Source: a virus (lineage: Duplodnaviria > Caudoviricetes). From it: a stretch of 64,000 nt of DNA. Of the stretch, positions 20,244-38,888 are shown piece by piece. The position numbers were made by a program, and so were the translations under genes. Every line of letters begins with the position of its first letter. Positions within the stretch are counted from its first letter, which is position 1. A model generated the notes under the pieces. The model did no database searches. It was given only the letters and a program-made list of their open reading frames with translations, and was not told the DNA's origin. The DNA lies in the IMG/VR virus record IMGVR_UViG_3300021960_000017; one strand, written 5' to 3'.

Positions 20244-20396
20244 ATGATAAAGTTCGTAATTACAGCCTACACAGAAAAAGGCCCTTATTCCCAAACTTCA
20301 CGTGGCACCGTAAAAGGCATGAACGACGCCTGCACTGAATTACTTCGTGATCCTAGTATTGTTCGTTACACCGTTGAAGAGGTGGAGATAGACTAA
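20244..20396 (+). CDS. 50-aa hypothetical early protein (not in ORF track)
   Basis: MIKFVITAYTEKGPYSQTSRGTVKGMNDACTELLRDPSIVRYTVEEVEID; strong GAGGAG RBS; stop overlaps the next ATG. Confidence 0.7.
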   Translation: MIKFVITAYTEKGPYSQTSRGTVKGMNDACTELLRDPSIVRYTVEEVEID

Positions 20397-21445: not shown

Positions 21446-21513
21446 TGTAGTATACTACAAGTTAGTTAGCTGTATCACTTGCTCCTCTCCTCCTCCAGAT
21501 GCAGTTAACACTG

Positions 21514-21550
21514 GGCGGTGTGTTTAGAAATAGACACACCGCCACTCTTT
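21514..21550 (+). terminator. intrinsic terminator
   Basis: GGCGGTGTGTTTA-gaaa-TAGACACACCGCC followed by a T-rich tract. Confidence 0.75.
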
Positions 21551-21564
21551 TATTATAATAAAGT

Positions 21565-22224
21565 ATGAGTGATATGCTTTTATACACGGTAGGTGACAGT
21601 TTTACATTTGGACAGGAACTAACCGATCCTGAGAAATCCTGTTGGCCTAGACTTGTAGCAGACGCCATTGATTATAAATTAATTAATGATGGCCGGCCAG
21701 GAGTAGGTAATGAGTTTATGGTTAAAAAAACTATGCAGGCTGTTGGCGAAATAAAGCCTGATTTGGTTATAGTATCCTGGTCTAGTGCTGGGCGTTGCGA
21801 GTATGCAGATGAATGGGGAGCATATGATATTTGGCCTGCATGTAGCAGTCGTGTGTTTGACCAAGATCCTAAACTATCCTACCGTAAGCAATTAATAAAA
21901 TACATTACAGCCTATAATAATGAAGAACATGAATACCGTAGATGGTTACGACAAGTTATTCTTTTACAGAGCTTTTTAAAATGTTATAATGTAAACTATA
22001 AATTTGTATCAGCATTTGACAATCAACGCCGCAATAAACGATATATGAAGCATAGTGACGGCTATGTTCAAATGATAGATACCGATAACTTTATAGGTTG
22101 GCCATATGAAGGGCTTGTGGAATGGTCTTACAGAACTCCTCAAGGCCCTGGTGGTCATCCACTTGAAGAAGGTCACCAAAAGGTAGCGGAGAAGATAGTT
22201 GAAGCCTTGCGTATTACACGTTAA
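21565..22224 (+). CDS. SGNH/GDSL hydrolase-like protein
   Basis: GDSFTFG, NDGRPGVGN, GGHPLEEGH. Confidence 0.8.
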   Translation: MSDMLLYTVGDSFTFGQELTDPEKSCWPRLVADAIDYKLINDGRPGVGNEFMVKKTMQAVGEIKPDLVIVSWSSAGRCEYADEWGAYDIWPACSSRVFDQDPKLSYRKQLIKYITAYNNEEHEYRRWLRQVILLQSFLKCYNVNYKFVSAFDNQRRNKRYMKHSDGYVQMIDTDNFIGWPYEGLVEWSYRTPQGPGGHPLEEGHQKVAEKIVEALRITR

Positions 22225-23656
22225 AGACGAAGTTAATGTTAAGATAGAAGGCTTAGATTTGGATACTCGCCGCAAGTTGAGTAATAAATTTAAGTATGAG
22301 ATACCTGGTGCTCGTTACATGCCAGCAGTAAGACTTGGACGCTGGGACGGCAAGATGGCTTTCTTCCAGTTAGGCGGCAGTACCTATATTAACTTGCTGC
22401 CTGAGATACTTCCCATCCTTAGCAGTGACGGTTATGATGTTACACTTAATGACGTCAGAGACTATCAGATGGATTATCCGCTGGAGCCAGTGGATGAGAA
22501 TAGTTATGCTGACAAAGTATGGCCTGACAAGCATCCAGCAGCAGGGCAGCCAATCATACTCAGAGACTATCAAGTAGAAGTTATTAATAACTTTTTAACT
22601 AACCCACAAAGCCTACAAGAAGTAGCAACTGGTGCTGGCAAAACACTTATAACCGCAGTGCTAAGTCACAGATGCGAAGCACATGGACGCACTATTGTTA
22701 TTGTGCCCAACAAGAGTTTGGTGACACAAACAGAAGCAGACTACATCAACATGGGGTTAGATGTGGGCGTGTTTTATGGAGACCGTAAAGAGTTTGGGCA
22801 TACACATACCATCTGTACCTGGCAAAGCCTAAACATACTTCTTAAGAATACAAAGAACCAGGTTGCTCCTATAACTATACAAGAGTTTCTAGAGGGCGTC
22901 GTGTGCATCATGGTAGATGAGGTGCATATGGCTAAAGCAGATGCACTAAAGACATTACTCACTGGCGTAATGAGCCAGATACCCATACGCTGGGGATTAA
23001 CTGGAACAGTACCCAAGGAAGACTTTGAAAAGATCAGTTTGGTGTGCAGTTTAGGTCCAGTTATTAATCACATTAGTGCTGCTGATTTACAGGAAAAAGG
23101 AGTACTTGCAAATTGCGAAGTGAATGTGTTACAATTAATAGACTTAAAAGAGTACACAAACTATCAGAGTGAACTAAAATACCTACTAGAGCAGGAAGAT
23201 AGAATAGATTACATTGCTGGTGTAATTGAACAAATTAGACTTACAGGGAATACCCTAGTATTAGTGGATAGGATAAATGCAGGAACAAAAATTACCCAGA
23301 GGATTCCGGGCGCCGTTTTTGTCAGCGGTGGCACGAAGGCACAAGCTCGTAAACAAGAATATGACGAAGTCGCAGATTCTAGCGATAAGGTTATTGTGGC
23401 CACTTATGGTGTTGCCGCTGTGGGTATTAATATCCCTCGCATTTTCAATCTCGTACTTTTGGAGCCTGGTAAGAGCTTCGTTAGAGTTATACAATCTATA
23501 GGGCGAGGTATTCGTAAAGCAGAAGACAAGGACTTTGTTCAAATCTGGGACATTACAAGTACTTGTAGATTTGCAAAACGACATCTAACAAAAAGAAAAG
23601 CATTTTATACTGAAGCAAAATACCCATTTAACGTACAGAAAGTAGACTGGAAATGA
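22199..23656 (+). CDS. uvsW: SF2 DNA helicase UvsW
   Basis: LRDYQ, ATGAGKT, MVDEVH, GLTGT, AVGINIP, QSIGRGIR. Confidence 0.92.
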   Translation: MKPCVLHVKDEVNVKIEGLDLDTRRKLSNKFKYEIPGARYMPAVRLGRWDGKMAFFQLGGSTYINLLPEILPILSSDGYDVTLNDVRDYQMDYPLEPVDENSYADKVWPDKHPAAGQPIILRDYQVEVINNFLTNPQSLQEVATGAGKTLITAVLSHRCEAHGRTIVIVPNKSLVTQTEADYINMGLDVGVFYGDRKEFGHTHTICTWQSLNILLKNTKNQVAPITIQEFLEGVVCIMVDEVHMAKADALKTLLTGVMSQIPIRWGLTGTVPKEDFEKISLVCSLGPVINHISAADLQEKGVLANCEVNVLQLIDLKEYTNYQSELKYLLEQEDRIDYIAGVIEQIRLTGNTLVLVDRINAGTKITQRIPGAVFVSGGTKAQARKQEYDEVADSSDKVIVATYGVAAVGINIPRIFNLVLLEPGKSFVRVIQSIGRGIRKAEDKDFVQIWDITSTCRFAKRHLTKRKAFYTEAKYPFNVQKVDWK

Positions 23657-24279
23657 CTTTATTTTTAAATGGGTGTAGTTATGGCGCGGCATGGAAGGAT
23701 TTCCCAGGTGTAAATCTTAGTAGGGGTGGTGGCAGTTTTTATAGAAGTATAAGAACTACTATGGAATGGATAGCAGTAAACGGAAAACCCGTCTATGTTT
23801 TTATACCTATTACAGTTTGCACTAGATTTGAAGTAAGCAAAGTAGTAGTTGATCAACCTATAGAAGGAGCATATGATCTTGCTCCGTTTGAACATTATAA
23901 AATAGAGGGTCAACTATCTGATAGTTGTTATAGATCCTGGGACTATCTTTTTATGAATATTATAATGTTTGCTAGTTGGTTGGATCAACAAGGTATAAAA
24001 TATTTGATCTGGGATCAGTGTAATAAGTTTGAAAATGTGCATATTACCGGATTTAAAGCATTTGAAAAACTTAAATGGATACAGGAAAATCCAAGGATTG
24101 TTCCACTGTTTGAGTTTTGCGGCAATCAATATATGTATGACAATGGCGGTGAGAGTTTTGATAATGACGCTAATTTGGAACCTTGTATTAGGCATTATGC
24201 GCCAGAGTCATATACAATTTTAAAGCATTATTTAGACAATTATATAAAAACAAAATTAAATGAAAGGGTAGATTGGTGA
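23653..24279 (+). CDS. SGNH-like protein
   Basis: LNGCSY, NLSRGGGS, C-terminal RHY. Confidence 0.65.
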   Translation: MTLFLNGCSYGAAWKDFPGVNLSRGGGSFYRSIRTTMEWIAVNGKPVYVFIPITVCTRFEVSKVVVDQPIEGAYDLAPFEHYKIEGQLSDSCYRSWDYLFMNIIMFASWLDQQGIKYLIWDQCNKFENVHITGFKAFEKLKWIQENPRIVPLFEFCGNQYMYDNGGESFDNDANLEPCIRHYAPESYTILKHYLDNYIKTKLNERVDW

Positions 24280-24776
24280 GAATATTAACACTTGAAGATG
24301 CAGCATTTGAAATGAATGAACTACCTGATGAGGTAGATGATTTGCGTTTTGCTGTACTGGATAATTCAGATCCAGTAAATCCAGACTACTTTTTTATTCC
24401 TCTTATATTTCTAGAAAGTTTTAATGCGCCAGCACTTGTATTACGGATAGCTGGAAATATTATTAAGATGCCAGTGGACTGGAAGATTCTAATTGGCGAA
24501 CCTGAGCATGGCGACCTGGAAATGTGTAACCTGAGTAGCCTTAATGACAGAGGATTTAAAGCATTTAGTTTTAATCCTATTAGCGGGTTTTTAGCAGACT
24601 ATCTTCCTATTGACATTGTAGATTTGTATACTGATGTTAAGTGGTTTTTCCCTAAAATTAAACAGGGCCAAATACTAGCTATTCCTATTGAAACTGGACC
24701 CAAGCCAAGGTGTGTCTATTGTGCTAAAGAAATTAACAAGCAGAACGAAATAATAGACATTAGTAAGGTGTTATGA
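24273..24776 (+). CDS. hypothetical protein (probably core)
   Basis: 167-aa ORF with core-like codon usage in the replication operon. Confidence 0.75.
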   Translation: MVRILTLEDAAFEMNELPDEVDDLRFAVLDNSDPVNPDYFFIPLIFLESFNAPALVLRIAGNIIKMPVDWKILIGEPEHGDLEMCNLSSLNDRGFKAFSFNPISGFLADYLPIDIVDLYTDVKWFFPKIKQGQILAIPIETGPKPRCVYCAKEINKQNEIIDISKVL

Positions 24777-25000
24777 GTTTAGATCTTCATGGTATGACAA
24801 TACACGAAGGCTGGATTTATTTTAATAATGAAGTAGACCAGGCCTTTTGGCGTGGTGTTAAGTCCATGAAGGTAATTACAGGTAAAGGACTTATGCTGCA
24901 TGAGTTTCCAACATGGGCAAGAAACCATCCTAAAATTCGCGAAGTTGAGTTAAACAAAGATGGTGGAAGTTTTCGTGTTTGGTTAAAGAAGAATGCCTAA
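24773..25000 (+). CDS. stand-alone Smr-domain endonuclease
   Basis: LDLHG and KVITGKG motifs, GGSF. Confidence 0.85.
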   Translation: MSLDLHGMTIHEGWIYFNNEVDQAFWRGVKSMKVITGKGLMLHEFPTWARNHPKIREVELNKDGGSFRVWLKKNA

Positions 25001-25262
25001 AATTATCGTAAGAGAAGATTATAGAGTATATTATTATATGGTGGATCCGCAAAGCAGAAGTCACAGAGATGCTATTGCAGAAGTACAGCGTAAGGTTAAT
25101 GATTTTTTTGCGAGTAGAGATATTCAAGCAACTAGACATATACATCGCAGTTCACAGGGCAAGGGTATGATGTGGATTCATTTTGAAACTCTAAACGACA
25201 GCAATATGTTTTACATGGCTCTAGCAGAACATATTACTAGTAAAGGAGTAAGATTTGACTGA
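24993..25262 (+). CDS. hypothetical protein
   Basis: 89-aa coupled ORF. Confidence 0.65.
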   Translation: MPKIIVREDYRVYYYMVDPQSRSHRDAIAEVQRKVNDFFASRDIQATRHIHRSSQGKGMMWIHFETLNDSNMFYMALAEHITSKGVRFD

Positions 25263-25689
25263 ACTGCCTCTTAATCAGGTATTGGGTGCTCTTGATAAAA
25301 AGGATATGAAGTTCTGGGATCGTTGCACACCTGAACAGCAAAAGAAGATTGCTCCATTTCTACTAAACAGATATATGAGTATTGTGAAAGGTAGTGCAGA
25401 GTTGCATGCTTATTATCTCATGGCTACCAATCAGCGTGTGAATGTAAACTATTTTGCACTCAGTAAGCATCCTAAACTTGTATGGCAACTGTTATGTACC
25501 GTGAGCCCAGGCATGGGCAATCAGTTCCATCAGTGGATAGGCAACAAAAAGAAAAAGTCCAGTAATACGGACATACGCAAAAGACTCGCAGAGTTATATC
25601 CTAATTACAAAGAGGATGAACTAGACTTACTAGCCAGTATTACTACAGCATCTGAATTAAAACAACTGGCTGAGGCTAGTGGACAATGA
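25255..25689 (+). CDS. clamp-loader small subunit (T4 gp62-like)
   Basis: FWD..TPEQQKKIAPFLLNRYMS, HPKLVWQLL, YPNYKEDEL. Confidence 0.75.
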   Translation: MTELPLNQVLGALDKKDMKFWDRCTPEQQKKIAPFLLNRYMSIVKGSAELHAYYLMATNQRVNVNYFALSKHPKLVWQLLCTVSPGMGNQFHQWIGNKKKKSSNTDIRKRLAELYPNYKEDELDLLASITTASELKQLAEASGQ

Positions 25690-26483
25690 TAGACTTTAAC
25701 ACAGATAAAGTTGTAATTGCTTACTATCCTCCGGGCGCCGGCGGAAAGACTGTCTTAAACTGTCTAGGAATAAGCAAAAACTTTTGTATACAAGATATTG
25801 ATGCGCCGCTAGACAGTCTTAGCAAGTTTAATCTTATAAAAACACGAATAGATCAATATGAAATAAGCAATAATTGGTCAGATTTAGATTTAGGTTGTGT
25901 ACAACTTTATGGATTAGATGCATTTAAAGGGTTTAGTCCTGCTTTTTATCGTACTGCAATTTATAATGAAAAATTAGTAGAATTATTTCAAAGTGGTATA
26001 TATATGCCAATTGTTTGCCATACATATGCACAATTAAAAAATGTCCTTGGTATTTTTCCTAACAGCCAAATAATTGGGTTGCAGAATAGTTTTAATTTTA
26101 CAGCAAGCCGAAATTACGAAATTTTTAATATTAAAAAAGGATATAATGAAATAAAAGGTGACAATTGGCCCAGGGTAGTACCTAAAAAATTTTCCGATTT
26201 CCCAAAGGAAATTCAACAGGAAATACTAAATGACTTTCCCACATTTTATAATGCAATAACAAACAGAAAACATTATAACGATACATTTTTACAAGATGTT
26301 CATATGGATCATATATGGGATGTGCAATGGTTTTCAAATGTAGAAAAAACTTTAACTGAACTAAAATCCCTTTATAATGCTCTGAAGTTGGATGATTTTG
26401 ATACAGAAAAAATCCGATATTATTACACTAGATGGAAAACAAAAGTATATGATATATCCATGGATAACAATAAAGTCGTATAA
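25686..26483 (+). CDS. P-loop/sulfotransferase-like hypothetical protein
   Basis: N-terminal YYPPGAGGKTV loop; internal YNEIKGDNWP module. Confidence 0.55.
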   Translation: MIDFNTDKVVIAYYPPGAGGKTVLNCLGISKNFCIQDIDAPLDSLSKFNLIKTRIDQYEISNNWSDLDLGCVQLYGLDAFKGFSPAFYRTAIYNEKLVELFQSGIYMPIVCHTYAQLKNVLGIFPNSQIIGLQNSFNFTASRNYEIFNIKKGYNEIKGDNWPRVVPKKFSDFPKEIQQEILNDFPTFYNAITNRKHYNDTFLQDVHMDHIWDVQWFSNVEKTLTELKSLYNALKLDDFDTEKIRYYYTRWKTKVYDISMDNNKVV

Positions 26484-27220
26484 TGCAAATGAATGACTTT
26501 ACAAGTGTTATAAAAGATGCTATAATTAATTATAGTATGGAACCTAAAGATTATACATGTAAGTATTGTGGCAGATCGTATCGTAAAGAAAGCACTCTAG
26601 CAGCGCATCTATGTGAGCCTAAACGTAGAGCACAACAGGAGCGCGAACCTGGTGTACAGATTGGTATGCAGGCTTATTTGCGTTTCTATGAGCTCACACA
26701 GGGCAGTGCTAAACTAAAAACATATGCTGACTTCAGTGAATCGCCATACTATAATGCTTTCGTGAAGTTTGGCAGACATTGTCAGAGCATTCGTGCAATA
26801 AACATCAGTGGCTTTATAGACTATGTAATTAAGGAAAACAAGAAGCTGGATAACTGGACCAAGGACAGTGTATACCAGGACTTCTTGTTTATGCATCTAA
26901 AACGAGAGAGTGTACAGGATGCACTGGAGCGTAGTCTGGAAACCATGGCAGATTGGGCGGCTGAAAAGGAAAGTGTATACAATCATTATTTCCTATATGC
27001 TAGTAAAAATCGTATTGTAAGTGATATTACCAAGGGACGCATCAGCAGTTGGGTTGTGTTTAACAGTAGTACTGGTATTGAAATGCTGGACAAGTTGAGT
27101 ACTGAACAAATTGAGATAGCGTTTCCCTATATTGATCCAGACTTTTGGAAACGCAAGTTTGTGGACTATGTTGCTGATACTGAATGGGTAAAGCATATAC
27201 TAAGTGAGGCAAAAATATAA
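26483..27220 (+). CDS. zinc-finger (C2HC) protein
   Basis: YTCKYCGRSYRKESTLAAHLC. Confidence 0.75.
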   Translation: MQMNDFTSVIKDAIINYSMEPKDYTCKYCGRSYRKESTLAAHLCEPKRRAQQEREPGVQIGMQAYLRFYELTQGSAKLKTYADFSESPYYNAFVKFGRHCQSIRAINISGFIDYVIKENKKLDNWTKDSVYQDFLFMHLKRESVQDALERSLETMADWAAEKESVYNHYFLYASKNRIVSDITKGRISSWVVFNSSTGIEMLDKLSTEQIEIAFPYIDPDFWKRKFVDYVADTEWVKHILSEAKI

Positions 27221-28263
27221 TGTTTGTGTCGGGTACTATAGAAGATTGCTTTACAATGCAATTTTTTGACATTTTATCAGCATATGCAAAAGCAAATAAT
27301 ATCAATATTGATACAGATAAAAAGTTTTATCTAATAGATCATGTTACAGATGATTATCCCCCTGGCTATGATCATTACTTTGTTGAAAATGGAAATGAGC
27401 ATTTATCTGTCTTAGGAAAAGCAAAACGTCTAGTAGACGAACAAAAAGCAGATTTACTATATGGGAGTTATCTGCATAAAAAGCATCCCTTATTTGATAG
27501 AACTATTAGTATGGCTGGAAGTACTAATCTTTCCAATATTTTTTATACAAGTCCTTTTTATTTTACTAGTTTGTTATTTAAAAAACAACATCGCGATAAA
27601 AATTTAACTTTTATAAATGGCGAAAACAGAAGTGTACGACATTATTTTTTAGATCAAGTTAGCAAATATATGGATTTAGTAATTAACAATAGTCAGTCAA
27701 CAATCAAAACAAATCTAACTGGATATTATAATAATGCTGATAATATCTTTGCAAATTATTGTAACAATTTATATGACATAGATAATTCACCTACCAATCA
27801 TATTAGTACGAATATAATAAGTTTTGGAAAATTTGGTCAAACCAGATTAAGTTATGAACCTTTGCCAGAGTATTTTACAAGTCGTTGTATGGTTTATCCA
27901 GAAACTACCTTTTATAACTGGGAAATATTTATTACTGAAAAAACATGGAAATGTGTAAAAGCAAAAACACACTGGATTATATTTGCAGGTGCAGGTAGTT
28001 ATGAAGTAATGCGTGAAGTAGGATTAAGGAGCATTATAGAACTATGTCCAGATTCTATGAATGACTTTGACAGTATCGAAGATCATATCCTTAGAATAGA
28101 AAAAATTAGTAAATGTTGTGAATATATTTCTAATAACAGTAGCATATTTGATAGTTCTGAAGCACATAATATGTTAGAATTAAATTATGAAAATTTCCAT
28201 AATCCATTATTAAGTGTGGAACGTTGCGTAAAACCCTTTATTGATAGGTATATAAGCACATGA
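27220..28263 (+). CDS. GT10-like protein (paralog of 14139..15128)
   Basis: FINGENR, VYPETT...FITEKTWK..KAKTHWIIFAG. Confidence 0.55.
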   Translation: MFVSGTIEDCFTMQFFDILSAYAKANNINIDTDKKFYLIDHVTDDYPPGYDHYFVENGNEHLSVLGKAKRLVDEQKADLLYGSYLHKKHPLFDRTISMAGSTNLSNIFYTSPFYFTSLLFKKQHRDKNLTFINGENRSVRHYFLDQVSKYMDLVINNSQSTIKTNLTGYYNNADNIFANYCNNLYDIDNSPTNHISTNIISFGKFGQTRLSYEPLPEYFTSRCMVYPETTFYNWEIFITEKTWKCVKAKTHWIIFAGAGSYEVMREVGLRSIIELCPDSMNDFDSIEDHILRIEKISKCCEYISNNSSIFDSSEAHNMLELNYENFHNPLLSVERCVKPFIDRYIST

Positions 28264-28823
28264 TTGACTTGCCTGATATTGATATAGACTTTAAAAATAG
28301 ATCTGATATTTTAAAGTTTATAGAGCATACACCTGCAAGATTAGAGACTGGCAGGCAGCATAACACTGGTGTATACTTTACTGACATACCCAGTGCAGGT
28401 GATGGTATGAGTACCTTTGATCACAAGCAAGCGGAACAACTGGGTTACTTTAAATTAGATTTGCTCAATGTAAGCGTATATGATCAGGTAAGAGACGAAG
28501 TACATTTAGTAGAATTAATGACTACAGAACCTCGGTGGAATAGACTCTGGGAAGATAGGGAGTTTTGTGAACAAATTGTACACATTGGTAATCATTATGA
28601 TTTAATTAAACAAATGAAGCCAGACAGTATACCCAGGATGGCTATGTTTTTAGCAGTGATGCGGCCAGGTAAAGCACACTTGCGTAACAAACCCTGGGCG
28701 GAAATTGCCAAAACTGTCTGGCAGCGACCTGAAAACGACAAATACTTTTTTAAGAAATCACACAGTGTAAGTTATGCACATCTTGTAGTCGTGCACATGA
28801 ATTTACTTGACTCGCTTAACTAG
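28260..28823 (+). CDS. minimal DNA polymerase III alpha (DnaE)-like protein, 187 aa
   Basis: PDIDIDF, HNTGVYF, FKLDLL, LAVMRPG, FKKSHSVSYA. Confidence 0.85.
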   Translation: MIDLPDIDIDFKNRSDILKFIEHTPARLETGRQHNTGVYFTDIPSAGDGMSTFDHKQAEQLGYFKLDLLNVSVYDQVRDEVHLVELMTTEPRWNRLWEDREFCEQIVHIGNHYDLIKQMKPDSIPRMAMFLAVMRPGKAHLRNKPWAEIAKTVWQRPENDKYFFKKSHSVSYAHLVVVHMNLLDSLN

Positions 28824-29177
28824 TGTAATATTTTTTCGCTTACTGCGACTTTTGGCCATCTCTAGTATGTTAACACTTGGTCCAAATATTATTTCTACAT
28901 CTTTAATATTAAGAGTAATTAAACTATAAGTGAACTTTGCCCAATCACCTTTTAGAAATAAGTTGATAGGAATTTTTTGGTTACTTTCCCACCACCAGGT
29001 TTCACCTAATTCCAAAAATTCTTGTCTATCGTCCTCAGTCTTTAGTGCTTCATAATTGTAAATGCTACAAACAGTATCATCGGAATTTTGTATTATTCCT
29101 AGATACTCATCACCACCATAACTAACAAGGCTTAAAAACGGATATTTTTCTTTTATTTCGTCGCTGATTCTTGCCAT
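28803..29177 (-). CDS. hypothetical protein
   Basis: 124-aa ORF, convergent with mini-DnaE. Confidence 0.75.
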   Translation of the reverse strand: MARISDEIKEKYPFLSLVSYGGDEYLGIIQNSDDTVCSIYNYEALKTEDDRQEFLELGETWWWESNQKIPINLFLKGDWAKFTYSLITLNIKDVEIIFGPSVNILEMAKSRSKRKNITLVKRVK

Positions 29178-29202
29178 TATAAAAACTATAAATAGTAGTG
29201 AT

Positions 29203-29961
29203 ATGACTACTATTACCAGTTACTTATACGAGCAAAATATTAAGGTTACCACAACTGATGTAACCGTGGGAAATGTTATGAGTATGTTTTACACACCAAA
29301 CATCAAAGTCTACAGAGGGATCGATAATCCTGTTAGAGTAAACTTTGTTAACAGGGATCAGAAGAAGGTCAGCCTAACTGATAAAACTGTTACCTTTGTT
29401 ATGATAGACAAAGAGACAAACAAAACACTCCTACAAAGAAGTGTTACAAGTATAAACCCAGCCGCTGGTACAGCAGAGTTTACACTCAGAGATGTTGACA
29501 TGTACAACCTAGACGGCAAATATTATACATATGCTTTTAAAGTTGTTAACGGCGAAGGCAGAACACAAATTGGTTATAGTGATGACAACTATGGTGCAGG
29601 TGGTGTGCTTGAGCTTATAGAAGGCGTTTATCCAACATTTGCTGCTAGTACTCTAGAAGATTTTGGTGCTGGCGATAATGGAAGTATCATTTATATTGAT
29701 CCATATGTTAATTCGAACAATGCGTTACACACCGCACAAGTTTATTTTTCAAGTGCATTTACAGGCACACTAACAGTCAAAGGCAGTTTAAGTCCAGGAG
29801 GTAGTGGACTTACAGCAGACGACTTTACTACTATTACAACTCAAACCTACACTGCACAGTCAGATAATGTTGCTTTTAGTTGGAATGGTGTTTACAGTGC
29901 TATACAATTTGTTCGCAGTACAACAACTGGAACACTTAGTAAAGTGCTGTATAGGCCATGA
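29203..29961 (+). CDS. putative virion structural protein
   Basis: TAAATA at 29189-29194; beta-rich T/S/G composition. Confidence 0.55.
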   Translation: MTTITSYLYEQNIKVTTTDVTVGNVMSMFYTPNIKVYRGIDNPVRVNFVNRDQKKVSLTDKTVTFVMIDKETNKTLLQRSVTSINPAAGTAEFTLRDVDMYNLDGKYYTYAFKVVNGEGRTQIGYSDDNYGAGGVLELIEGVYPTFAASTLEDFGAGDNGSIIYIDPYVNSNNALHTAQVYFSSAFTGTLTVKGSLSPGGSGLTADDFTTITTQTYTAQSDNVAFSWNGVYSAIQFVRSTTTGTLSKVLYRP

Positions 29962-30617
29962 AGTTAGTAGGATTTGGCTGTAGTTTTACATATGGAAGCG
30001 AACTAATAGATCCCAACATAAATGAATGGGATCAACATCATACAAATAAAAAGTATAGAGAAAGTCATGCCTGGTTAGGCTTACTTGCTAAACGACTAGG
30101 GTGCGAGTTTGATAATCGAGGTGAACCTGCTAATAGTAACTTTGCAATAGGTCAACAAGTTGCTGAATATGTTCGAACAAATCGTGAGAATTTACAAGAT
30201 ATTACTATTTGTATTGGATGGACTGGGCGACCAAGAATGAGCTGGTATGATGATCACTGGACACACAATGGTTTTGTCAGCGATAAAACAGGCTGGACAG
30301 ACAGTTGTCGGGAATGGGTAACTAGACACACTAGTCAAAGTTTAGATATGTTTACTGATAATGCTAAATTGATTGCTAATAGTGTGTGTAAGTTTTACGA
30401 TGTTAATCTACTACAGTTTAATTCACTTGGAAAACATGGGACAACAGGCTATAACAAATACCTTGCTGACGGATCCAGTATGGATGAATATTTAAGAAGT
30501 AAACAAGTTGATTTCGAAAAAAACTTTTTTGCAAGTGGCGATCATCCCAACGAAAGTGGTCATGAAGAATGGACAACATTTATGTGTGACTGGATAACGG
30601 GAAACAACCTTGTCTAA
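29958..30617 (+). CDS. SGNH-like protein
   Basis: GFGCSFTYG, NRGEPANSN, GDHPNESGH. Confidence 0.8.
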   Translation: MKLVGFGCSFTYGSELIDPNINEWDQHHTNKKYRESHAWLGLLAKRLGCEFDNRGEPANSNFAIGQQVAEYVRTNRENLQDITICIGWTGRPRMSWYDDHWTHNGFVSDKTGWTDSCREWVTRHTSQSLDMFTDNAKLIANSVCKFYDVNLLQFNSLGKHGTTGYNKYLADGSSMDEYLRSKQVDFEKNFFASGDHPNESGHEEWTTFMCDWITGNNLV

Positions 30618-31173
30618 AAAACTTTGGCAGTTTGGATGTAGTGTAAGCCTTGGTGAAGAAGCAACAAAGCCATATGGCGTCTGGATTGCAGAACATATTG
30701 GATATGAGTTTATCCAGCAAAGCGAAAGCAGTGCTAGCAATCCAAGTATAGCATTAAAGTTTTGCGAACTATATACCAAAATTGACAGTGAAGACCTAGT
30801 AATATTTGGCTGGAGCCATCCTAGCAGATCAAGTTGGTACAATAAACATGCACAGGGATGGGAACATTTAAATTATATACAACAGAAAAAGCGGGGAGAT
30901 CCGTTAACTGGAAGTGTGGTAGATTACATAACACACCAAATATGTGATTATGTTATAAACACCAACGATTGGTATCCTAAACATATTGTAGACACAACCT
31001 GTAAACTTAATAACCTAAAATATCTACATGTAGATTGTGTTCCAGGAATGGTAGATTATTTAATGCATGAACAAGCCAAATACATAGCAGACCACTTGCA
31101 TCCTAATGATCTAGGACATGAACGAATTTTCCACTTGATTAAATCGGACATTTTTAGTATAATTAATACATGA
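30610..31173 (+). CDS. SGNH-like protein
   Basis: FGCSVSLG, SSASN, DHLHPNDLGH. Confidence 0.75.
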   Translation: MSKKLWQFGCSVSLGEEATKPYGVWIAEHIGYEFIQQSESSASNPSIALKFCELYTKIDSEDLVIFGWSHPSRSSWYNKHAQGWEHLNYIQQKKRGDPLTGSVVDYITHQICDYVINTNDWYPKHIVDTTCKLNNLKYLHVDCVPGMVDYLMHEQAKYIADHLHPNDLGHERIFHLIKSDIFSIINT

Positions 31174-32129
31174 ATTCTATACAGCAAGCAGTAATTGATA
31201 ATCTGCCCAGGCAGAAGCGTAGTCCAGGTGGCTGGTATACGTTTAATGCTGTATGCTGTCATCACAATGGAGAGAGCCTGGACAAGCGTGGTAGAGGCGG
31301 TGCTATAACAGATGGCGAGGCAATAACCTATCACTGCTTTAACTGTGGATTTAAAACTGGCTGGCGTCCTGGCAGACATGTTAGTTACAAGTTTCGTAAA
31401 CTGCTAACCTGGTTAGGCGTAGAAGAAAATGAGCGTCAGCGTCTTGTAGTAGAAGCACTACGCATCAAGGAAACTGTAGTTGTTGAAGAGGAAGATGAGC
31501 CTGAATTTACTATAGAGTTTCCAGTTAGAAAACTTCCTGAAAATTGTGTACCATTAACTGAAGCACCGGCTGAGTTACAGGAGTATGCAGTCAGCAGATG
31601 CTTGCCAGTAGATGAATTGCTCTGGAGTAATACTAGAGCAGGCGGGTTATATCGTCGGATAATTGTACCTTGTACGTGGGACAATCGAGTCATAGGGTCA
31701 ACTGCCAGGGCGGTTACTGACGATATAAAACCCAAATACTTTAACAACTATGAAGCCAACTATGTTTATGGAATAGATCGCCAATTAAAGGATGGAAAGT
31801 TTAGCATAGTGTGCGAGGGTATTTTGGATGCACTAGTAATTGGTGGTATAAGTATACTAACTAACAGGTGTAATGACATACAAGCACAGATAATAGACAC
31901 GTTGGGTAGAGAAATTGTGCTGGTTCCTGACAGAGACAGGGCAGGACAATCACTAATAGATGATGCACTAGAGCATGGCTGGAGTGTAAGTTTTCCTGAA
32001 TGGGAACCAGATGTAAAAGATATTAATGCCGCAGTGGTACGATATGGCAAACTTTTTACTTTAAAATCCATTATTGATGCAAAACAAACCAATAGACTAA
32101 AAATAAACTTAATGAGGAAAAAGTTATAA
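31170..32129 (+). CDS. DNA primase (Zn-binding + TOPRIM, gp61-like)
   Basis: CCH...YHCFNC, CEGILDAL, PDRDRAG, KDIN. Confidence 0.9.
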   Translation: MNSIQQAVIDNLPRQKRSPGGWYTFNAVCCHHNGESLDKRGRGGAITDGEAITYHCFNCGFKTGWRPGRHVSYKFRKLLTWLGVEENERQRLVVEALRIKETVVVEEEDEPEFTIEFPVRKLPENCVPLTEAPAELQEYAVSRCLPVDELLWSNTRAGGLYRRIIVPCTWDNRVIGSTARAVTDDIKPKYFNNYEANYVYGIDRQLKDGKFSIVCEGILDALVIGGISILTNRCNDIQAQIIDTLGREIVLVPDRDRAGQSLIDDALEHGWSVSFPEWEPDVKDINAAVVRYGKLFTLKSIIDAKQTNRLKINLMRKKL

Positions 32130-32962
32130 TGGATATCTGGCTAGGGTTTCTGCCTGGAAGCGGTGCTACTAGTATAGAAATGCTTTTACGGTCTGACTGC
32201 ACTAGTTTGGAAACATTACCTGTTGATGATTTTTGGGTTGAGGGGAAAGATTTTGTTACAGGGCATGGTAGTGGCAAACAATGGCATCCTTACACCTCCC
32301 AAGAGTTATTTAATCCAAAATATAAAAAAGCTAAAGTTAATATTTTTACACCTATAATTCCTATGTCAGATCTCAAAGGTAAGGAAATTTTAGAACATAT
32401 TTATATTCAACCAGGAATAAAATTTTATCTTGGACCATCATGTAAACGTAGTTGTGAATTTGCAGTAATAACAACACAAAAAGTACCTTCTTACCCTAAC
32501 AACATTATAAATTTGGAGCATTCTGCTCAATGGAGTACTGGTAGTCTTGATAAATGGGAAATTAGGGAAGCAATAAGTCTAAACTTTATGCAATGGTTTG
32601 TACCACAAATGATAGAACAATGGCAAATTGCTAGCAATCTTGGGTTTACTTGTATAGATACATTAGAACTGTTTAGTTGTTATCCAACAGTAGTAGATAG
32701 CATAGTAAACCAAATTGGGTGTACTATTACTGATAATGAAATGTATAAGCAGCATGTTAATCACTGGTTTACGGGACAAGATAAAATATGGAATGATTGG
32801 GACAGATATAATGAATATAAAAATGGTAAAGGAAAATTAACAGGAGATATTGTACATGAAGCAATGATCCAGTATAATTTAAGAGAACGTGGAATAGAAT
32901 TAAAGTGTTATGGATTAAACGAGTTTCCAGACGCCCAGACATTAAAGGATTTTTATGAGTAG
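32129..32962 (+). CDS. P-loop/sulfotransferase-like hypothetical protein
   Basis: N-terminal FLPGSGAT loop, similar to 25686 and 34856. Confidence 0.5.
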   Translation: MDIWLGFLPGSGATSIEMLLRSDCTSLETLPVDDFWVEGKDFVTGHGSGKQWHPYTSQELFNPKYKKAKVNIFTPIIPMSDLKGKEILEHIYIQPGIKFYLGPSCKRSCEFAVITTQKVPSYPNNIINLEHSAQWSTGSLDKWEIREAISLNFMQWFVPQMIEQWQIASNLGFTCIDTLELFSCYPTVVDSIVNQIGCTITDNEMYKQHVNHWFTGQDKIWNDWDRYNEYKNGKGKLTGDIVHEAMIQYNLRERGIELKCYGLNEFPDAQTLKDFYE

Positions 32963-34352
32963 AGAATACACACCAGATTTACAAAAACTGTTTTTAGAAA
33001 TGATGATGCAGGATGCACAGAATTATGTGCGAGTGCAGAACATTTTTAATCCAGAGAACTTTGACCGTAGTTTGCGTGATGCAGCAAAGTTTATTAAAGA
33101 GCATGCTACTAAGCATAGTACTATGCCTACATATGAACAGTTAAATGCAGTAACGCAGGTAGATGCAAAGCCTATTCCAGAGATGGCAGAAGGGCACAAC
33201 GATTGGTTCCTGGAAGAGTTTGAATCATTTACTAAACGGCAGGAACTGGAACGTGCTATTCTTAAAGCAGCAGACTTATTGGAAAAAGGAACATATGATC
33301 CCGTAGAAAAACTAATCAAAGATGCAGTGCAGATCAGTCTAACCAAGGACATGGGCACAGACTATTTTGAAGATCCTCGCAGCAGACTTATGAAGTTAAA
33401 AGACAACAATGGCCAAGTAAGCACAGGTTGGCCTGCGCTGGATCGCAAATTGTTTGGTGGCATGAACAAAGGTGAGTTGAACATTTTTGCAGGTGGTAGT
33501 GGTAGTGGTAAGAGTTTGTTTATGCAGAACTTGGCTGTTAACTGGGCAACGGCAGGACTCAATGGTGTATATTTGACACTGGAACTTAGTGAAGAACTGA
33601 GTGCAATGCGTATTGATAGTATGCTCACAAACATTGCCAGTAAAGAGATATTCAAGGATCTTGACACAGTAGAGATGAAAGTCAAGATGGTTAGCAAAAA
33701 AGCAGGCAACTTGCAGATTAAATATTTGCCAGCACAGAGCACAGTTAATGATGTTAGAGCATACTTAAAAGAACTTGAGATTACAAAGAACATGCGTATT
33801 GACTTCCTGCTTATTGATTATCTGGACTTGTTGATGCCAGTTAGTGCAAAGGTAAGTCCCAATGATTTGTTTGTTAAAGACAAGTATGTGAGTGAAGAAC
33901 TACGCAACTTGGCTAGAGAACTTAACACAATCTTTGTAACAGCATCGCAGTTGAACAGAAGTGCAGTTGAAGAGATTGAGTTTGATCACAGCCATATTAG
34001 TGGTGGTATCAGTAAGATTAATACAGCAGACAATGTGTTTGGTATCTTTACGAGTAGAGCAATGCGTGAGCGTGGACGCTATCAGATACAGTTAATGAAA
34101 ACTAGAAGTTCAAGCGGTGTTGGCCAAAAGGTAGACCTGGAGTTTGACATTGAAAGTTTGCGTATTAGAGACCTTGGCGAAGATGAAGACTATCAGAACT
34201 TTAAGAAGCAAAGCAGTTCAATCTACGAGCAACTAAAGAACGGAGACAAAACTCCTGAAGCTGAGGGCGATGCTGAAGTAAGTAAGATTACAGCAAATGT
34301 GCAGAGCAGTAAACTTAAAGACATGTTAGCAAGTTTAAAGCAAAGTGACTAA
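32955..34352 (+). CDS. replicative DNA helicase (DnaB/gp41-like)
   Basis: GGSGSGKS, TLELSE, LLIDYLDL, TASQLNR, MKTR. Confidence 0.93.
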   Translation: MSREYTPDLQKLFLEMMMQDAQNYVRVQNIFNPENFDRSLRDAAKFIKEHATKHSTMPTYEQLNAVTQVDAKPIPEMAEGHNDWFLEEFESFTKRQELERAILKAADLLEKGTYDPVEKLIKDAVQISLTKDMGTDYFEDPRSRLMKLKDNNGQVSTGWPALDRKLFGGMNKGELNIFAGGSGSGKSLFMQNLAVNWATAGLNGVYLTLELSEELSAMRIDSMLTNIASKEIFKDLDTVEMKVKMVSKKAGNLQIKYLPAQSTVNDVRAYLKELEITKNMRIDFLLIDYLDLLMPVSAKVSPNDLFVKDKYVSEELRNLARELNTIFVTASQLNRSAVEEIEFDHSHISGGISKINTADNVFGIFTSRAMRERGRYQIQLMKTRSSSGVGQKVDLEFDIESLRIRDLGEDEDYQNFKKQSSSIYEQLKNGDKTPEAEGDAEVSKITANVQSSKLKDMLASLKQSD

Positions 34353-34878
34353 AATACACACATTTAGTGATGGATTCGGTGCTGGTCATGCTTTTCCTAT
34401 GTGGCCCCAGATGATTGCTGCAAGTGGGTTTGATGTAGTTAATTATAGTGAAGTTAGCATTAGCGTTCCTGAACTACTGGATTTGTTTTATAAATCTTAT
34501 AACTTTTATGATAGATTTTTAGTACAACTTCCTGAGTTTGGTAGAATAATTGGTGTTAGGATGCCAGCACAGACAGATAGAAATCTTCATACCAGGGATC
34601 AAAATCTTCTAACGGATTTAAAAAATAAAAACTTTCGTAATGTAACCATACTACATGTGCCAGAAATGGATAAGTGGAGTAGGCAATTTTCTGACAGAGG
34701 AGAAGAACCTCAACCTCAGCCAGTGGTTCATGCTAGATGGTTGACGCAAAACTTTCCTGATTTAATTAGCCCAAACATATACTATACTATAGAAAAATTT
34801 GGCAAGTGGGAACCCTATTACTGGGATAGAGAACAACAATGGAAAGACTTAATAAATGAAGCTAGTTTGTTTCAGTAA
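34345..34878 (+). CDS. degenerate SGNH-like protein
   Basis: FSDGF in place of GDSF; WPQMI; QPQPVVHARW in place of HP..GH..W. Confidence 0.5.
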   Translation: MTKIHTFSDGFGAGHAFPMWPQMIAASGFDVVNYSEVSISVPELLDLFYKSYNFYDRFLVQLPEFGRIIGVRMPAQTDRNLHTRDQNLLTDLKNKNFRNVTILHVPEMDKWSRQFSDRGEEPQPQPVVHARWLTQNFPDLISPNIYYTIEKFGKWEPYYWDREQQWKDLINEASLFQ

Positions 34879-35491
34879 TAACACCGGTGGCGGATTAATT
34901 TGTGATTTACTAAATCATAAGCACACTTGGTCTGATAGTTATAAAATTTCAAATATAGAACATAATGTTTTTAAACAAACTGATACTCCGACTATATCTA
35001 CTAAGATATCAGACCTTGACATGTGGAATAAAGTTTCAAAAAAATATAAAAACTCTAACCAATGGTACGGAACACATGTTCATCCTAGTGCTATTCCCAA
35101 TCTAAATGACTTTGAAGAAGTATTAATTATAACAACTACTGGTCGTGACAGTAAATTATATAGATGGTTAAGGTATTACTACGGGTGGTTTTATAGTGTT
35201 GAACCCAATTGGATTGAAGATGATAACTTAGAACACATTGACAAAATTAGAGAAATGGCAAAAAATGTATTCATTGAATTCTCAGGATGGAAAGATTATC
35301 CATGTGTTGAGTTTTCAGATATAGTGTCTGGAAAATTTGTAACTGAGAGAAATCTCAATGTTGAAAGATTCAATGATTGGCAATCTAAAAATCAGTTTTT
35401 GTTTAATAGCTCTATTAACAAATGGGGTGTTTTAAGATTTGATGAAGCAGAATATGAAATAACTACTGGGCTAGCATACAAGTATCATTAA
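34856..35491 (+). CDS. P-loop/sulfotransferase-like hypothetical protein
   Basis: N-terminal FSNNTGGGLICDLL; GTHVHP. Confidence 0.5.
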   Translation: MKLVCFSNNTGGGLICDLLNHKHTWSDSYKISNIEHNVFKQTDTPTISTKISDLDMWNKVSKKYKNSNQWYGTHVHPSAIPNLNDFEEVLIITTTGRDSKLYRWLRYYYGWFYSVEPNWIEDDNLEHIDKIREMAKNVFIEFSGWKDYPCVEFSDIVSGKFVTERNLNVERFNDWQSKNQFLFNSSINKWGVLRFDEAEYEITTGLAYKYH

Positions 35492-37181
35492 GATACTTGT
35501 CTAGTCTATAGCCCTTTGCTTCCCAACAGTCAATATAGCGTGTGCCGTTAGTCATTCGTATCTTGCCTGATCCTACAATAACATCGTGGTCTCTGTAGCC
35601 AAAGGGCTTCTTAATAGTTACGTCTACATATTCACTGTTGCCTACACCTAGCGTAACAAATGTAACATATCTTCCTTGCTCCCCCTTGAATACACGGCCG
35701 TTTGCTACTAGTCCTGCAAAGTTTACACGGTCCAGATAGGTTTCTTGTACAAACATATTGGGCATAAACTCTGGCTGTGACCAATAGCCATTGCGTTTGT
35801 ATTGTGTTACGGGAGATTCACATACACCGTTTTCGTATCCTAGTTCACGCAGGTCCCAGCCTGCTGTTTTTGCTTCCTGTTTGTGCACCCAGCGTTTATA
35901 TGATCCCTGGCAATGTTTGAGTGCTGCTTGCCAGAACTTCATAGGATTGTGTGCTTTTTGATATGCCAGTGCCCAGATAAGTCTGCCCAGGTTTACAGCA
36001 TGAGCACGACATAAACCAAAGTTGCCCAGCCCATATAACTCTTGTATAATTGCTTCCTTGTCATCATGCTCGCCCATGCGAGTCATAAACTCCATTACAC
36101 GCTCTTCATCTTTTTTAGCAAATGCCCGTCTGTACATGTCTGCTTCATACAAGTCACAACCTATGAGTTTGGCTATTTTGCGTATAGCATCGTCTTCATA
36201 TACAATAGTGTCCTCCAGTCTGTTCTCTGTCCAGTCCTGGAAAAAACTTGCCTTTTGTCTGCCAGTGGTTGCAACAGGGCGTATAAGTGCTGTAGCAAAT
36301 ACACAGTCTGCTTTTGATTGAGGTTGTATTGCACGGAATAGGCGGCGCATTGCAGGGGACTCCGCTTGTGTTACACCAATTACATCGCCTCTGCATAGCA
36401 GTTGACTTGTCTCAAAGTCTTGTTCTGGATATGCTTCCAGTGGTGTGTCAGGGTCTATTTCTATAAGTTGGCTTAGTCCACGGTTAGCCAGTATGTCTAT
36501 TTTAAGGTGCTCTAGATCTTCTACTTCACGTTTGTCTAATAATATTTGATTGTCTTTGTTGAATAAACTCTTGGGTAGTTTTCTTTCAAATACAAGAACA
36601 CCACCACAGTGTTTGCTGATACTACGTTTTTTGCCTATTAGTTTTCTTTCTATTCTCATGGCCTCTTCCTTGTCAATGTCTAAATCTTCATAACGAAAAT
36701 TGCGAGGAAGTCTACCAGACGCACCTAGACGGCGTGCCGCTTCTCTACGTGCACTGCGCTCCTTGTATAGCACATAGTTACTGATTCTTGCTGAACGTTC
36801 TGGCCAATTTGCAAAGATACGTTGCATGACAGTGTCCTGTTGCCAATGCGGAAAGTCTATGTCTACGTCTGGTAGATCATCCCTCAGTGGATTTAAGAAA
36901 CGTGCAACCGGTATTTGCCACCTTATGGGATCAACGTCTGTTATTCCTAGAAGATAACAGACAAGACTAGACCCTGCCGAACCCCGAGTCATATGTGTAA
37001 TGTCCTCGGTCAGAGCTAATACGTCACAAATTGTTAGGAAATAATCAGTAAAGCGAAGTTTGAGTATAATCTCAAGTTCTTCGACTAGTCTATCGTGGTA
37101 CTCTTGAGCCTCTGGTATGTGCCTTACAAACCTGCCAAGTAGCCTATCTAATTGAGCCTTCGCGTCTTTTGGTAATTTCAT
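35463..37181 (-). CDS. dnaE: compact DnaE-like DNA polymerase III alpha lacking the PHP domain
   Basis: RGSAGSSLVCYLLGIT, PDVDIDF, HCGGV, KIDIL, CRAHAV, C-terminal OB fold; 572 aa. Confidence 0.88.
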   Translation of the reverse strand: MKLPKDAKAQLDRLLGRFVRHIPEAQEYHDRLVEELEIILKLRFTDYFLTICDVLALTEDITHMTRGSAGSSLVCYLLGITDVDPIRWQIPVARFLNPLRDDLPDVDIDFPHWQQDTVMQRIFANWPERSARISNYVLYKERSARREAARRLGASGRLPRNFRYEDLDIDKEEAMRIERKLIGKKRSISKHCGGVLVFERKLPKSLFNKDNQILLDKREVEDLEHLKIDILANRGLSQLIEIDPDTPLEAYPEQDFETSQLLCRGDVIGVTQAESPAMRRLFRAIQPQSKADCVFATALIRPVATTGRQKASFFQDWTENRLEDTIVYEDDAIRKIAKLIGCDLYEADMYRRAFAKKDEERVMEFMTRMGEHDDKEAIIQELYGLGNFGLCRAHAVNLGRLIWALAYQKAHNPMKFWQAALKHCQGSYKRWVHKQEAKTAGWDLRELGYENGVCESPVTQYKRNGYWSQPEFMPNMFVQETYLDRVNFAGLVANGRVFKGEQGRYVTFVTLGVGNSEYVDVTIKKPFGYRDHDVIVGSGKIRMTNGTRYIDCWEAKGYRLDKYLNDTCMLAQ

Positions 37182-37289: not shown

Positions 37290-37598
37290 TTATAATAGTT
37301 TCTTTTTTAGGATTTGGCGCACATCGTCATCTGAAAACTTAATATGCCAAGTGCCATTAAATGTTACATAATCAACATTTGTCAAATATGCATAGTCTTT
37401 ATTATCTGTTGTCATGGTACTGTATTGAAACAGTTCAGATAATATTAAATCTTTATACCTGATAGTGTTTATTTTGATATAACTATCAGAGTGTGTTCTA
37501 TAATTTTTTCCGTAAAAATGTAATTTTACTTCAGTAGGTGATATTTCTTCACGCTTTATATAAAATGGACCTATAGTTTCAAATTCAAATTCTATCAT
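37290..37598 (-). CDS. hypothetical protein
   Basis: 102-aa ORF coupled to the upstream gene. Confidence 0.6.
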   Translation of the reverse strand: MIEFEFETIGPFYIKREEISPTEVKLHFYGKNYRTHSDSYIKINTIRYKDLILSELFQYSTMTTDNKDYAYLTNVDYVTFNGTWHIKFSDDDVRQILKKKLL

Positions 37599-38850: not shown

Positions 38851-38859
38851 TATTATAAT

Positions 38860-38887: not shown

Positions 38888-38888
38888 C

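Follow-up and report, generated by a model that had tools for sequence, protein, structure and literature searches.

Why are the replication genes of a giant marine phage separated, at one junction after another, by accessory genes, and what may these genes do? The stretch examined here (the window) comprises 64,000 nucleotides of the IMG/VR record IMGVR_UViG_3300021960_000017 (Duplodnaviria; Caudoviricetes), derived from an uncultured marine or estuarine jumbo phage of approximately 228 kb (the window proteins lie on a contig of 228,546 bp). Its 20.4–37.2 kb portion is the replication module of this phage. A first-pass annotation of positions 21565–35491, made from the letters alone, had listed inserts at successive junctions of this module and proposed that a few enzyme families act as interchangeable cassettes that spread into core-gene junctions, possibly diversifying a surface or glycan modification. 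The gene order with its inserts was confirmed, each open reading frame (ORF) lying where that annotation had placed it, and the interpretation as a whole was partly supported. The explanation that we consider likely is that every co-directional or convergent boundary between backbone genes would act as a slot, which may be empty or may hold one to several accessory genes (fillers) fitted in with codon precision. Each slot would possess its own pool of old, slot-faithful alternative fillings, consisting chiefly of SGNH/DUF6071 proteins. Within the interval, the slots of the window hold eleven genes.

The junctions were compared among 160 IMG/VR loci collected around the helicase and zinc-finger genes, of which 123 were non-redundant; the corresponding stretch of Pseudomonas phage PA5oct was added to give 124 loci. 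The backbone order (AAA, UvsW, c39, c42, ZnF, mini-DnaE, c47 on the minus strand, structural, primase, helicase) was identical across all 124 loci including PA5oct, while occupancy varied at eight of the nine backbone junctions (Table 1). A total of 417 fillers was grouped into 119 similarity clusters, with 8–31 clusters and 9–21 arrangements at each variable slot, so that the notion of only a few enzyme families was not borne out. Among families of at least 100 residues, 14 unrelated ones were found at primase–helicase and 22 at structural–primase. The SGNH family is nevertheless the largest, accounting for 112 of the 327 fillers of at least 100 residues (34%) and occurring at eight of the nine junctions, and the radical S-adenosylmethionine (SAM)/SPASM family is the second largest. 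Other filler types in the relatives include B12-radical SAM proteins, a ClpP-like protease, DUF3307, ferredoxins, a P-loop protein resembling adenosine 5′-phosphosulfate (APS) kinase, methyltransferases and PIG-L. The c47–structural junction (29178–29202), which was never filled, is the only divergent junction of the module, and insertions seem to be tolerated only at co-directional or convergent boundaries. Promoters are presumably located at this divergent junction.

Turnover at a single slot was followed on a helicase tree rooted on PA5oct. For primase–helicase, at least 20 changes between the occupied and empty states were required, at least 12 of them forced by well-supported branches, together with 30 changes of the full state. 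In the five-member clade of the window, whose helicases are at least 92% identical to that of the window, four fillings were observed: a sulfotransferase-fold gene, an SGNH gene (in two members), a radical-SAM gene, and a radical-SAM gene with a sulfotransferase-fold gene. This indicates that fillers are interchangeable at a slot, since unrelated genes occupy one junction beside helicases at least 92% identical. The closest relative, locus L094, gave a similar picture; its backbone is 79–92% identical to that of the window, its contents differ in all six variable slots covered, and fillers of the same family are only 32–44% identical. Nucleotide homology to locus L002 (blastn) ends at 32120, nine bases before the primase stop, and restarts at the helicase start (32955); it ends again at the helicase stop (34352) and restarts at 35490, 27 bases inside the DnaE-like gene. 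In L002 and L060, a radical-SAM gene stands in place of the filler 34856–35491, which L005 lacks. Homology thus breaks approximately 10–30 bases from the gene borders, and the junction sequences show borders of codon precision. Contigs of other metagenomes follow the backbone up to 32963, 34569 or 35499 and part from the window there; two of these points (32963 and 35499) lie 8–36 bases inside the bordering backbone gene. Such contigs are a hint, not proof, of alternative alleles in the same waters. Contig joints with sides shorter than 33 bases at 90% likeness were disregarded, and the contig depth, low over 34789–35320 in several runs, is a summed depth that cannot show absence. An RNA run gave only short pieces 90–95% alike, which come from a relative, and this run may contain DNA.

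The fillers are exchangeable within a slot and at the same time faithful to it. Junction labels on the SGNH tree required 10 changes, for which the minimum is 7 and the shuffled mean 22 (0/200 shuffles were as low), and the 24 SGNH copies at structural–primase can share one origin. Homologous fillers were 26% identical in the median between slots (38.7% at most for SGNH), as compared with 41% within a slot, and only two small families reach approximately 60% identity across slots. Recent hopping between slots was not seen, as judged from this median of 26%. Hence, exchange within a slot is far more frequent than movement between slots, and spread between junctions is rare and old; the cassettes of the first-pass annotation are interchangeable in the former sense and not in the latter. 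Long residence was also indicated for the family of 32129–32962, which always ends with F/Y-Y-E-stop (F-Y-E-stop in the window, 32950–32965), a stretch containing the ATG of the helicase, in members down to 39% identity. As this C-terminus is kept together with the helicase start codon, the filler has long been resident at primase–helicase, where its coding end and the start of its neighbor are co-constrained.

The identity of the fillers was examined by profile searches and predicted models. The SGNH labels given to the genes at 21565, 23653, 29958 and 30610 were upheld, as these and the gene at 38233 all match one SGNH/DUF6071 profile with E-values of 4e-22 to 3e-61; 21565 and 29958 exceed the DUF6071 gathering score, and 23653 and 30610 were assigned via the family profile. 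The lineage of 29958–30617 is the filler lineage most widely retained. A Pfam scan of 44 SGNH family members assigned DUF6071 to 11 and Lipase_GDSL to 7. Although the mean identity of these 44 members is 18%, G10, S12, N41 and H198 of the SGNH blocks are each at least 90% conserved, and such near-invariant Gly/Ser/Asn/His suggests selection on catalysis in the family. The Ser and His are kept in the window copies 21565, 23653, 29958, 30610 and 38233, and Cys replaces the Asp of the GDS motif in many members. Among solved structures, those nearest to the profile are lipolytic proteins of the GDSL family and carbohydrate acetyl-esterases. A fifth SGNH label had been given to 34345–34878: judged from its sequence, which has Gly at the position of the nucleophilic Ser and lacks the C-terminal half including the His block, it is a catalytically dead remnant related by profile, not an SGNH enzyme. 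In two other metagenome runs, contigs match up to 34569, inside this remnant, but not beyond, which would fit a recombination border within the gene. No paper mentioning DUF6071 was found in the literature searched. Beyond the interval, a second hydrolase-rich accessory set was found on the minus strand (37290–39662), consisting of a 102-residue ORF, a 213-residue ORF without a Pfam match, the SGNH paralog 38233–38850 and a class-3 lipase.

Three further inserts had been labeled sulfotransferase-like, and the label found model support for two. The model of 32129–32962 has a predicted local distance difference test score (pLDDT) of 89, and among solved structures it is matched best by sulfotransferases (Z 9.8, 196 residues, root-mean-square deviation 4.3), closely followed by P-loop kinases (Z 8.3), though Foldseek E-values did not reach 0.001. 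For 34856–35491 (pLDDT 94.5), sulfotransferases and P-loop kinases tie at Z 7.1; the sulfotransferase alignments (170–176 residues) cover more of the chain than the kinase ones, and the template-modeling (TM) scores in the Atlas were 0.56–0.60 for sulfotransferase clusters versus 0.45–0.49 for kinases. Both are hence predicted by their models to be sulfotransferase-fold proteins. The family of 32129–32962 has invariant H53, R146 and S150, putative counterparts of the catalytic His and the 3′-phosphate-binding Arg/Ser of sulfotransferases, and its profile gave no meaningful match, and no solved sulfotransferase, among PDB sequences. For the third, 25686–26483, sulfotransferase is a lead only, given by the Atlas language model (DUF2972 and Sulfotransfer_1, both at 0.93). 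In this protein, a stretch of approximately 50 residues (residues ~145–200) with a K-G-D/I-N/D-W-P word is shared with the L088 homolog and not with the other six members. Grouping of 25686, 32129 and 34856 as one family was tried and rejected, as profile–profile probabilities of 0.3–2.4% revealed no mutual similarity. Pfam searches up to E 5 gave nothing for the genes at 25686, 32129, 34345, 34856 and 37595 and chance-level matches only for 27220.

The GT10-like (glycosyltransferase family 10) label of 27220–28263 received weak, motif-specific support. In a search of PDB with its family profile (146 relatives), the top two matches were GT10 fucosyltransferases, namely FUT9 and plant FucTA (marginal E-values of 0.012 and 0.54, respectively), aligned on an E...ITEK motif; across 147 sequences, conservation is 90% or higher at E228, E240, K241 and K244. 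The Atlas model has a predicted TM score of 0.71 and a weak GT-B neighbor, and Pfam Glyco_transf_10 matched neither this protein nor the 60 relatives scanned. Some relatives form fusions with enzymes of sugar-nucleotide metabolism (UDP-galactopyranose mutase, epimerase). At the same ZnF–mini-DnaE slot, the close relatives L087, L090, L084 and L099 carry a three-gene unit, namely a protein of 141–156 residues, the APS-kinase-like P-loop protein of 140–152 residues (29.1 bits; cut-off 21.1) and the first protein once more as a second copy; in L099, the unit comes after a GT10-like gene 74% identical to that of the window. A ClpP-like protease recurs at UvsW–c39 (L009, 1246–1812, and 12 other loci; CLP_protease E 8e-35) and lies one slot further on in L088, where it is approximately 60% identical. 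The small Smr gene 24773–25000, formerly counted with the core, has no homolog in any of the 124 related loci, and it is a private filler of c39–c42.

These enzyme types make tailoring of a glycan or small molecule plausible, as SGNH, sulfotransferase-fold, GT10-like, radical-SAM, methyltransferase, PIG-L and APS-kinase-like proteins would all fit such a role, and the surface or glycan diversification proposed earlier is plausible on the same ground. The fillers would be soluble tailoring enzymes (for de-O-acetylation or acyl transfer, sulfation-like transfer and glycosyl transfer) made together with the replication proteins, and they may vary the chemistry of a phage-made or host molecule, most likely a glycan. 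We may further speculate, though with considerable doubt, that the phage population maintains a library of single-gene tailoring alleles at fixed slots of highly recombining replication operons, from which recombination between co-infecting relatives would deal new sets of esterase, sulfotransferase-like, glycosyltransferase and radical-SAM genes, diversifying glycan or DNA modification under host defence.

The same slots may instead serve another purpose, namely modification of phage DNA or nucleotides by the fillers, with turnover driven by host restriction and modification-dependent nucleases. Kinase- or sulfotransferase-fold, glycosyltransferase-like and radical-SAM enzymes occur in base hypermodification pathways, and there are fillers of these kinds. 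The fillers are also located inside replication operons, translationally coupled to primase and helicase. PA5oct, which shares the backbone, resists several restriction enzymes, and a modified guanine was proposed for it (PMC12191111). An arms race with the host would explain the fast turnover. The dominant filler does not agree with this purpose: SGNH hydrolases are not known to act in DNA modification, and the solved relatives of their profile are lipolytic proteins and carbohydrate acetyl-esterases, as described above. The radical-SAM fillers carry SPASM or B12 domains, sugar-nucleotide enzymes are the fusion partners in relatives of the GT10-like gene, and no base-modification starter enzyme turned up in the window, although no search was aimed at one. 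DNA modification is hence regarded as an unlikely purpose of the slots.

Another account of the variable occupancy requires neither insertion nor exchange: the ancestor had all of the fillers, and independent deletions have occurred since. It draws on the slot-faithful and old SGNH lineages, on the SGNH of structural–primase, which is present in 49 of 61 loci and can be traced to one origin, and on 34345–34878, which is visibly decaying. Against it, PA5oct carries a single small ORF, in UvsW–c39, its remaining eight junctions being empty, and primase–helicase is empty in the outgroup as well as in the basal lineages of the helicase tree. The ancestor would have needed all of the 14 families at primase–helicase and the 22 at structural–primase in tandem. 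Deletion cannot yield unrelated genes at the same slot in phages whose helicases are at least 92% identical to that of the window, which makes loss alone a distinctly improbable origin.

Still less probable is that the fillers, or a few of them, move actively into new junctions, whether as homing or transposing genes or through site-specific recombination at a motif common to the junctions. In line with such movement, SGNH genes are present in eight of nine junctions, a few well-supported sister pairs lie in different junctions (L016 at AAA–UvsW with L071 at c39–c42; the window gene 38233 with L020 at primase–helicase), two other families are alike across junctions as noted above, and the common overlapping stop/start syntax could give microhomology. 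Pfam scans, however, detected no nuclease, transposase or integrase domain in the window fillers, nor in the 25 Pfam families most often assigned to 149 fillers of the relatives (29 rarer families lie outside this set); HNH, GIY-YIG and LAGLIDADG were likewise lacking in both. Homologs in different slots are far more diverged than those within one. No flanking repeats or promoter–terminator motifs were found at the fillers, because there is no intergenic space, and no junction motif is shared beyond the stop/start overlap. In the window, promoter-like sites were slightly above the expectation from shuffled sequence (84 versus 66.5, standard deviation 7.9) and terminators were at expectation (13 versus 11.4, standard deviation 3.0); the only strong pair of hairpin and promoter marks the operon start (21514–21559). 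The fillers hence show no sign of self-mobility.

The codon overlaps and base composition, both pointed out as features of the inserts, were re-examined. Start and stop codons do overlap or abut, yet they do so at core–core junctions too: in the relatives, the median gap was −4 alike for core–core, core–insert, insert–core and insert–insert pairs. As the overlapping rule holds for all gene pairs, it is no signature of insertion. The GC content of third codon positions (GC3) was 0.247 for the nine flagged inserts versus 0.336 for the backbone (p 0.0013), and 0.255 versus 0.297 for the other genes of the window when Smr was taken as a tenth insert (p 0.02); fillers were AT-richer in 59 of 68 related loci (Wilcoxon p 2e-10), in the same direction. 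Since old, slot-faithful fillers are AT-rich too, this bias marks accessory status, not recent import. Neither fixed junction contents nor a composition identical to that of the backbone was thus observed.

For slots with exchangeable fillings, the following route would account for these observations. Insertions, rare and surviving at gene borders only, would supply new fillings, and homologous recombination in the conserved, essential flanks may then carry these from one co-circulating relative to another, which would reshuffle the filler sets. Adjacent backbone blocks differ up to five-fold in relative divergence; the distances of the window to L094 and L087 are 0.20 and 0.23 for c39, c42 and ZnF, and 0.11 and 0.63 for mini-DnaE, c47 and the structural gene.

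Several points weigh against the explanation by slots and its functional extension. The tree used for turnover reflects one gene, the helicase, and not whole genomes. Approximately unbiased (AU) tests gave no topological conflict between primase and helicase, the clade of the helicase tree not being rejected by the primase data (p 0.59), and L094 is the sister of the window in each of the two blocks tested. With no such conflict, the case for recombination rests on the uneven distances and on slot turnover. The genes of the relatives were naive longest-ORF calls, which makes fillers below 100 residues and exact overlap sizes uncertain. The sulfotransferase-fold scores are middling (Z 7–10), neither 32129 nor 34856 matches Pfam Sulfotransfer_1, Sulfotransfer_3 or Sulphotransf up to E 5, and the N-terminal loop of 32129–32962 reads P-G-S-x-x-S, without Lys, where sulfotransferases bind the 5′-phosphate of 3′-phosphoadenosine 5′-phosphosulfate. 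The GT10 link of 27220–28263 does not go beyond E 0.012. Co-expression with replication genes fits a role on a virion glycan poorly. An origin of the variable junctions in chimeric metagenome assembly or in spurious ORFs can practically be dismissed, for although all relatives are metagenome contigs with naively called ORFs, the inserted DNA at primase–helicase is 690–1755 bp long and no matter of ORF calling, many contigs and samples show the same arrangements independently, contigs of other runs bridge the primase, sulfotransferase-fold gene and helicase of the window (one with 0 differences), and filler families are conserved with up to 146 representatives at 50% clustering.

The layout of the module is given in Table 1. 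The plus strand of 20396–35491 is a continuous chain of ORFs with overlapping or abutting stops and starts, broken solely by the hairpin/promoter pair at 21514–21559 and the minus-strand gene 28803–29177, which divides the genes into two translationally coupled operons (21565–28823 and 29203–35491). PHROG searches matched none of the nine flagged inserts, Smr or the 89-residue protein at 24993. Among cultured phages, even the nearest relatives are distant, namely PA5oct (Arenbergviridae; helicase 52% identical) and Agrobacterium phage Atu_ph07 (47%). A 15-kb stretch found no nucleotide match among 50,697 GenBank phage records (megablast), and matching DNA is present in marine and estuary metagenomes.

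Table 1. Backbone genes, fillers and signals of the replication module and its surroundings, with the occupancy of each backbone junction among related loci
Feature	Coordinates	Strand	Remarks
AAA ATPase, backbone, last gene upstream of the operon	20396–21445	+	phrog_1250, weak AAA Pfam matches; homologs 54–87% identical in relatives
Terminator-like hairpin overlapping a promoter-like site	21514–21559	+	13-bp stem with 7 GC pairs; TAGACA-17-TATAAT; upstream edge of first operon
SGNH/DUF6071 hydrolase, GDS motif, slot AAA–UvsW	21565–22224	+	DUF6071 46.2 bits (cut-off 27); family profile E 2e-59
UvsW-type helicase, backbone	22199–23656	+	ResIII, Helicase_C, UvsW_N; PA5oct homolog 49% identical
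SGNH member, GCS motif, slot UvsW–c39	23653–24279	+	family profile E 8.5e-37
c39, backbone	24273–24776	+	phrog_11279 (no assigned function); present in PA5oct and relatives
Smr-domain protein, 75 residues, slot c39–c42	24773–25000	+	PF01713, 35.9 bits
Semi-conserved protein, 89 residues, slot c39–c42	24993–25262	+	cluster of 20, all at c39–c42; 27–70% identical to window copy
c42, backbone	25255–25689	+	phrog_11758 (no assigned function), a putative gp62 in the first-pass annotation; PA5oct homolog 37% identical
Filler with N-terminal Gly-rich loop PPGAGGKT, slot c42–ZnF	25686–26483	+	no Pfam match; 7 homologs, all at c42–ZnF
ZnF zinc-finger protein, backbone	26483–27220	+	weak C2H2 match, phrog_11058
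Phage-only, distantly GT10-like protein, slot ZnF–mini-DnaE	27220–28263	+	GC 0.285, most AT-rich gene of the stretch
mini-DnaE, DnaE-palm-like protein of 187 residues, backbone	28260–28823	+	phrog_11778 'DNA polymerase', E 2e-54
c47, small protein, backbone	28803–29177	-	phrog_11637
Virion structural protein homolog, backbone, opens second operon	29203–29961	+	PA5oct counterpart annotated structural by tandem mass spectrometry
SGNH/DUF6071, slot structural–primase, filler 1	29958–30617	+	DUF6071 31 bits (cut-off 27)
SGNH paralog, slot structural–primase, filler 2	30610–31173	+	family profile; 25% identical to 29958–30617
DNA primase, backbone	31170–32129	+	phrog_47
Predicted sulfotransferase-fold protein, slot primase–helicase	32129–32962	+	predicted model; 7/7 homologs at same slot
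DnaB-type replicative helicase, backbone	32955–34352	+	PF03796 (DnaB_C)
Truncated SGNH remnant, slot helicase–DnaE-like, filler 1	34345–34878	+	weak family-profile match, E 4.8e-6
Predicted sulfotransferase/P-loop-kinase-fold protein, slot helicase–DnaE-like, filler 2	34856–35491	+	predicted model
DnaE-like polymerase, 572 residues, backbone, right border of last slot	35463–37181	-	L002 copy 93% identical
Sixth SGNH paralog, beyond the interval, next variable stretch	38233–38850	-	family profile
Class-3 lipase	38889–39662	-	Pfam Lipase_3 E 4e-18
Junction AAA–UvsW			empty in 3/26 loci covering the junction
Junction UvsW–c39			empty in 23/55 loci
Junction c39–c42			empty in 12/49 loci
Junction c42–ZnF			empty in 28/51 loci
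Junction ZnF–mini-DnaE			empty in 30/69 loci; 19 different clusters seen
Junction mini-DnaE–c47			empty in 49/72 loci
Junction c47–structural			empty in 70/70 loci
Junction structural–primase			empty in 12/61 loci
Junction primase–helicase			empty in 44/86 loci

These observations describe a giant phage genome that is plastic at a fine grain, with single genes placed at nearly all boundaries of an essential, coupled operon rather than in separate islands, and with fillers that turn over faster than the flanking genes diverge. The uncharacterised, greatly expanded SGNH/DUF6071 family and several phage-only sulfotransferase-fold and GT10-like families are the main cargo, and they give biochemistry well-defined proteins to work on. 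The slots would provide rapid chemical diversification in abundant marine phages if their cargo modifies either a virion glycan or the DNA of the phage. Should the population-wide library of tailoring alleles exist, such a built-in combinatorial system would be comparable in logic to the swapping of O-antigen and capsule loci in bacteria. The conserved flanks offer anchors for polymerase chain reaction and long-read surveys of the natural diversity.

No prior description of this slot arrangement was found in the literature searched, and its nearest parallels lie in several known systems. PA5oct gp260–gp269 correspond to the backbone genes of the window and share their order and orientation, though PA5oct possesses a single 83-residue ORF between UvsW and c39 where the window has eleven slot genes. 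Free-standing homing endonuclease genes such as seg and mob lie between genes of phage T4. They resemble the fillers in being single genes placed precisely between essential genes, with polymorphic presence and absence, but the window fillers have no nuclease domain, conserve their catalytic residues, and are slot-faithful instead of invasive. Phage SGNH/GDSL hydrolases have been described as tail-fibre polysaccharide deacetylases and as NanS-p sialate O-acetylesterases (PMC9569702, PMC10462455). The SGNH fillers belong to the same superfamily, conserve its Ser/Asn/His blocks and have carbohydrate acetyl-esterases among their solved relatives. Those enzymes are, however, receptor-binding domains or prophage cargo, whereas here stand-alone proteins of approximately 190–220 residues occur as six copies in 17 kb within replication operons; no signal peptide was recognized by eye in the window SGNH proteins, and their best match is the uncharacterised DUF6071.

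The closest likeness is to the hyperplastic regions of the T4 superfamily, in which a conserved, syntenic core of replication and virion genes is interrupted by variable genes, whose exchange was proposed to proceed via PeSL early-promoter/stem-loop motifs flanking the swapped ORFs (PMC4122927, PMC2908710). In both systems variable genes lie between syntenic core genes, and in T4 relatives ORFan insertions also occur inside core groups, with swapping thought to be adaptive. The variable genes of the T4 superfamily are grouped in regions between large core blocks, whereas in the present module a slot is found at nearly each single-gene boundary. Here, unlike the PeSL case, there is no intergenic DNA or flanking motif at the fillers, and the divergent junction, which presumably bears the promoters, is never filled (70/70 loci); one enzyme family, moreover, supplies a third of the larger fillers. 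Plasticity between syntenic core genes is thus known from phages, and what this module adds is its single-gene grain, its motif-free borders, and the dominance of one uncharacterised family.

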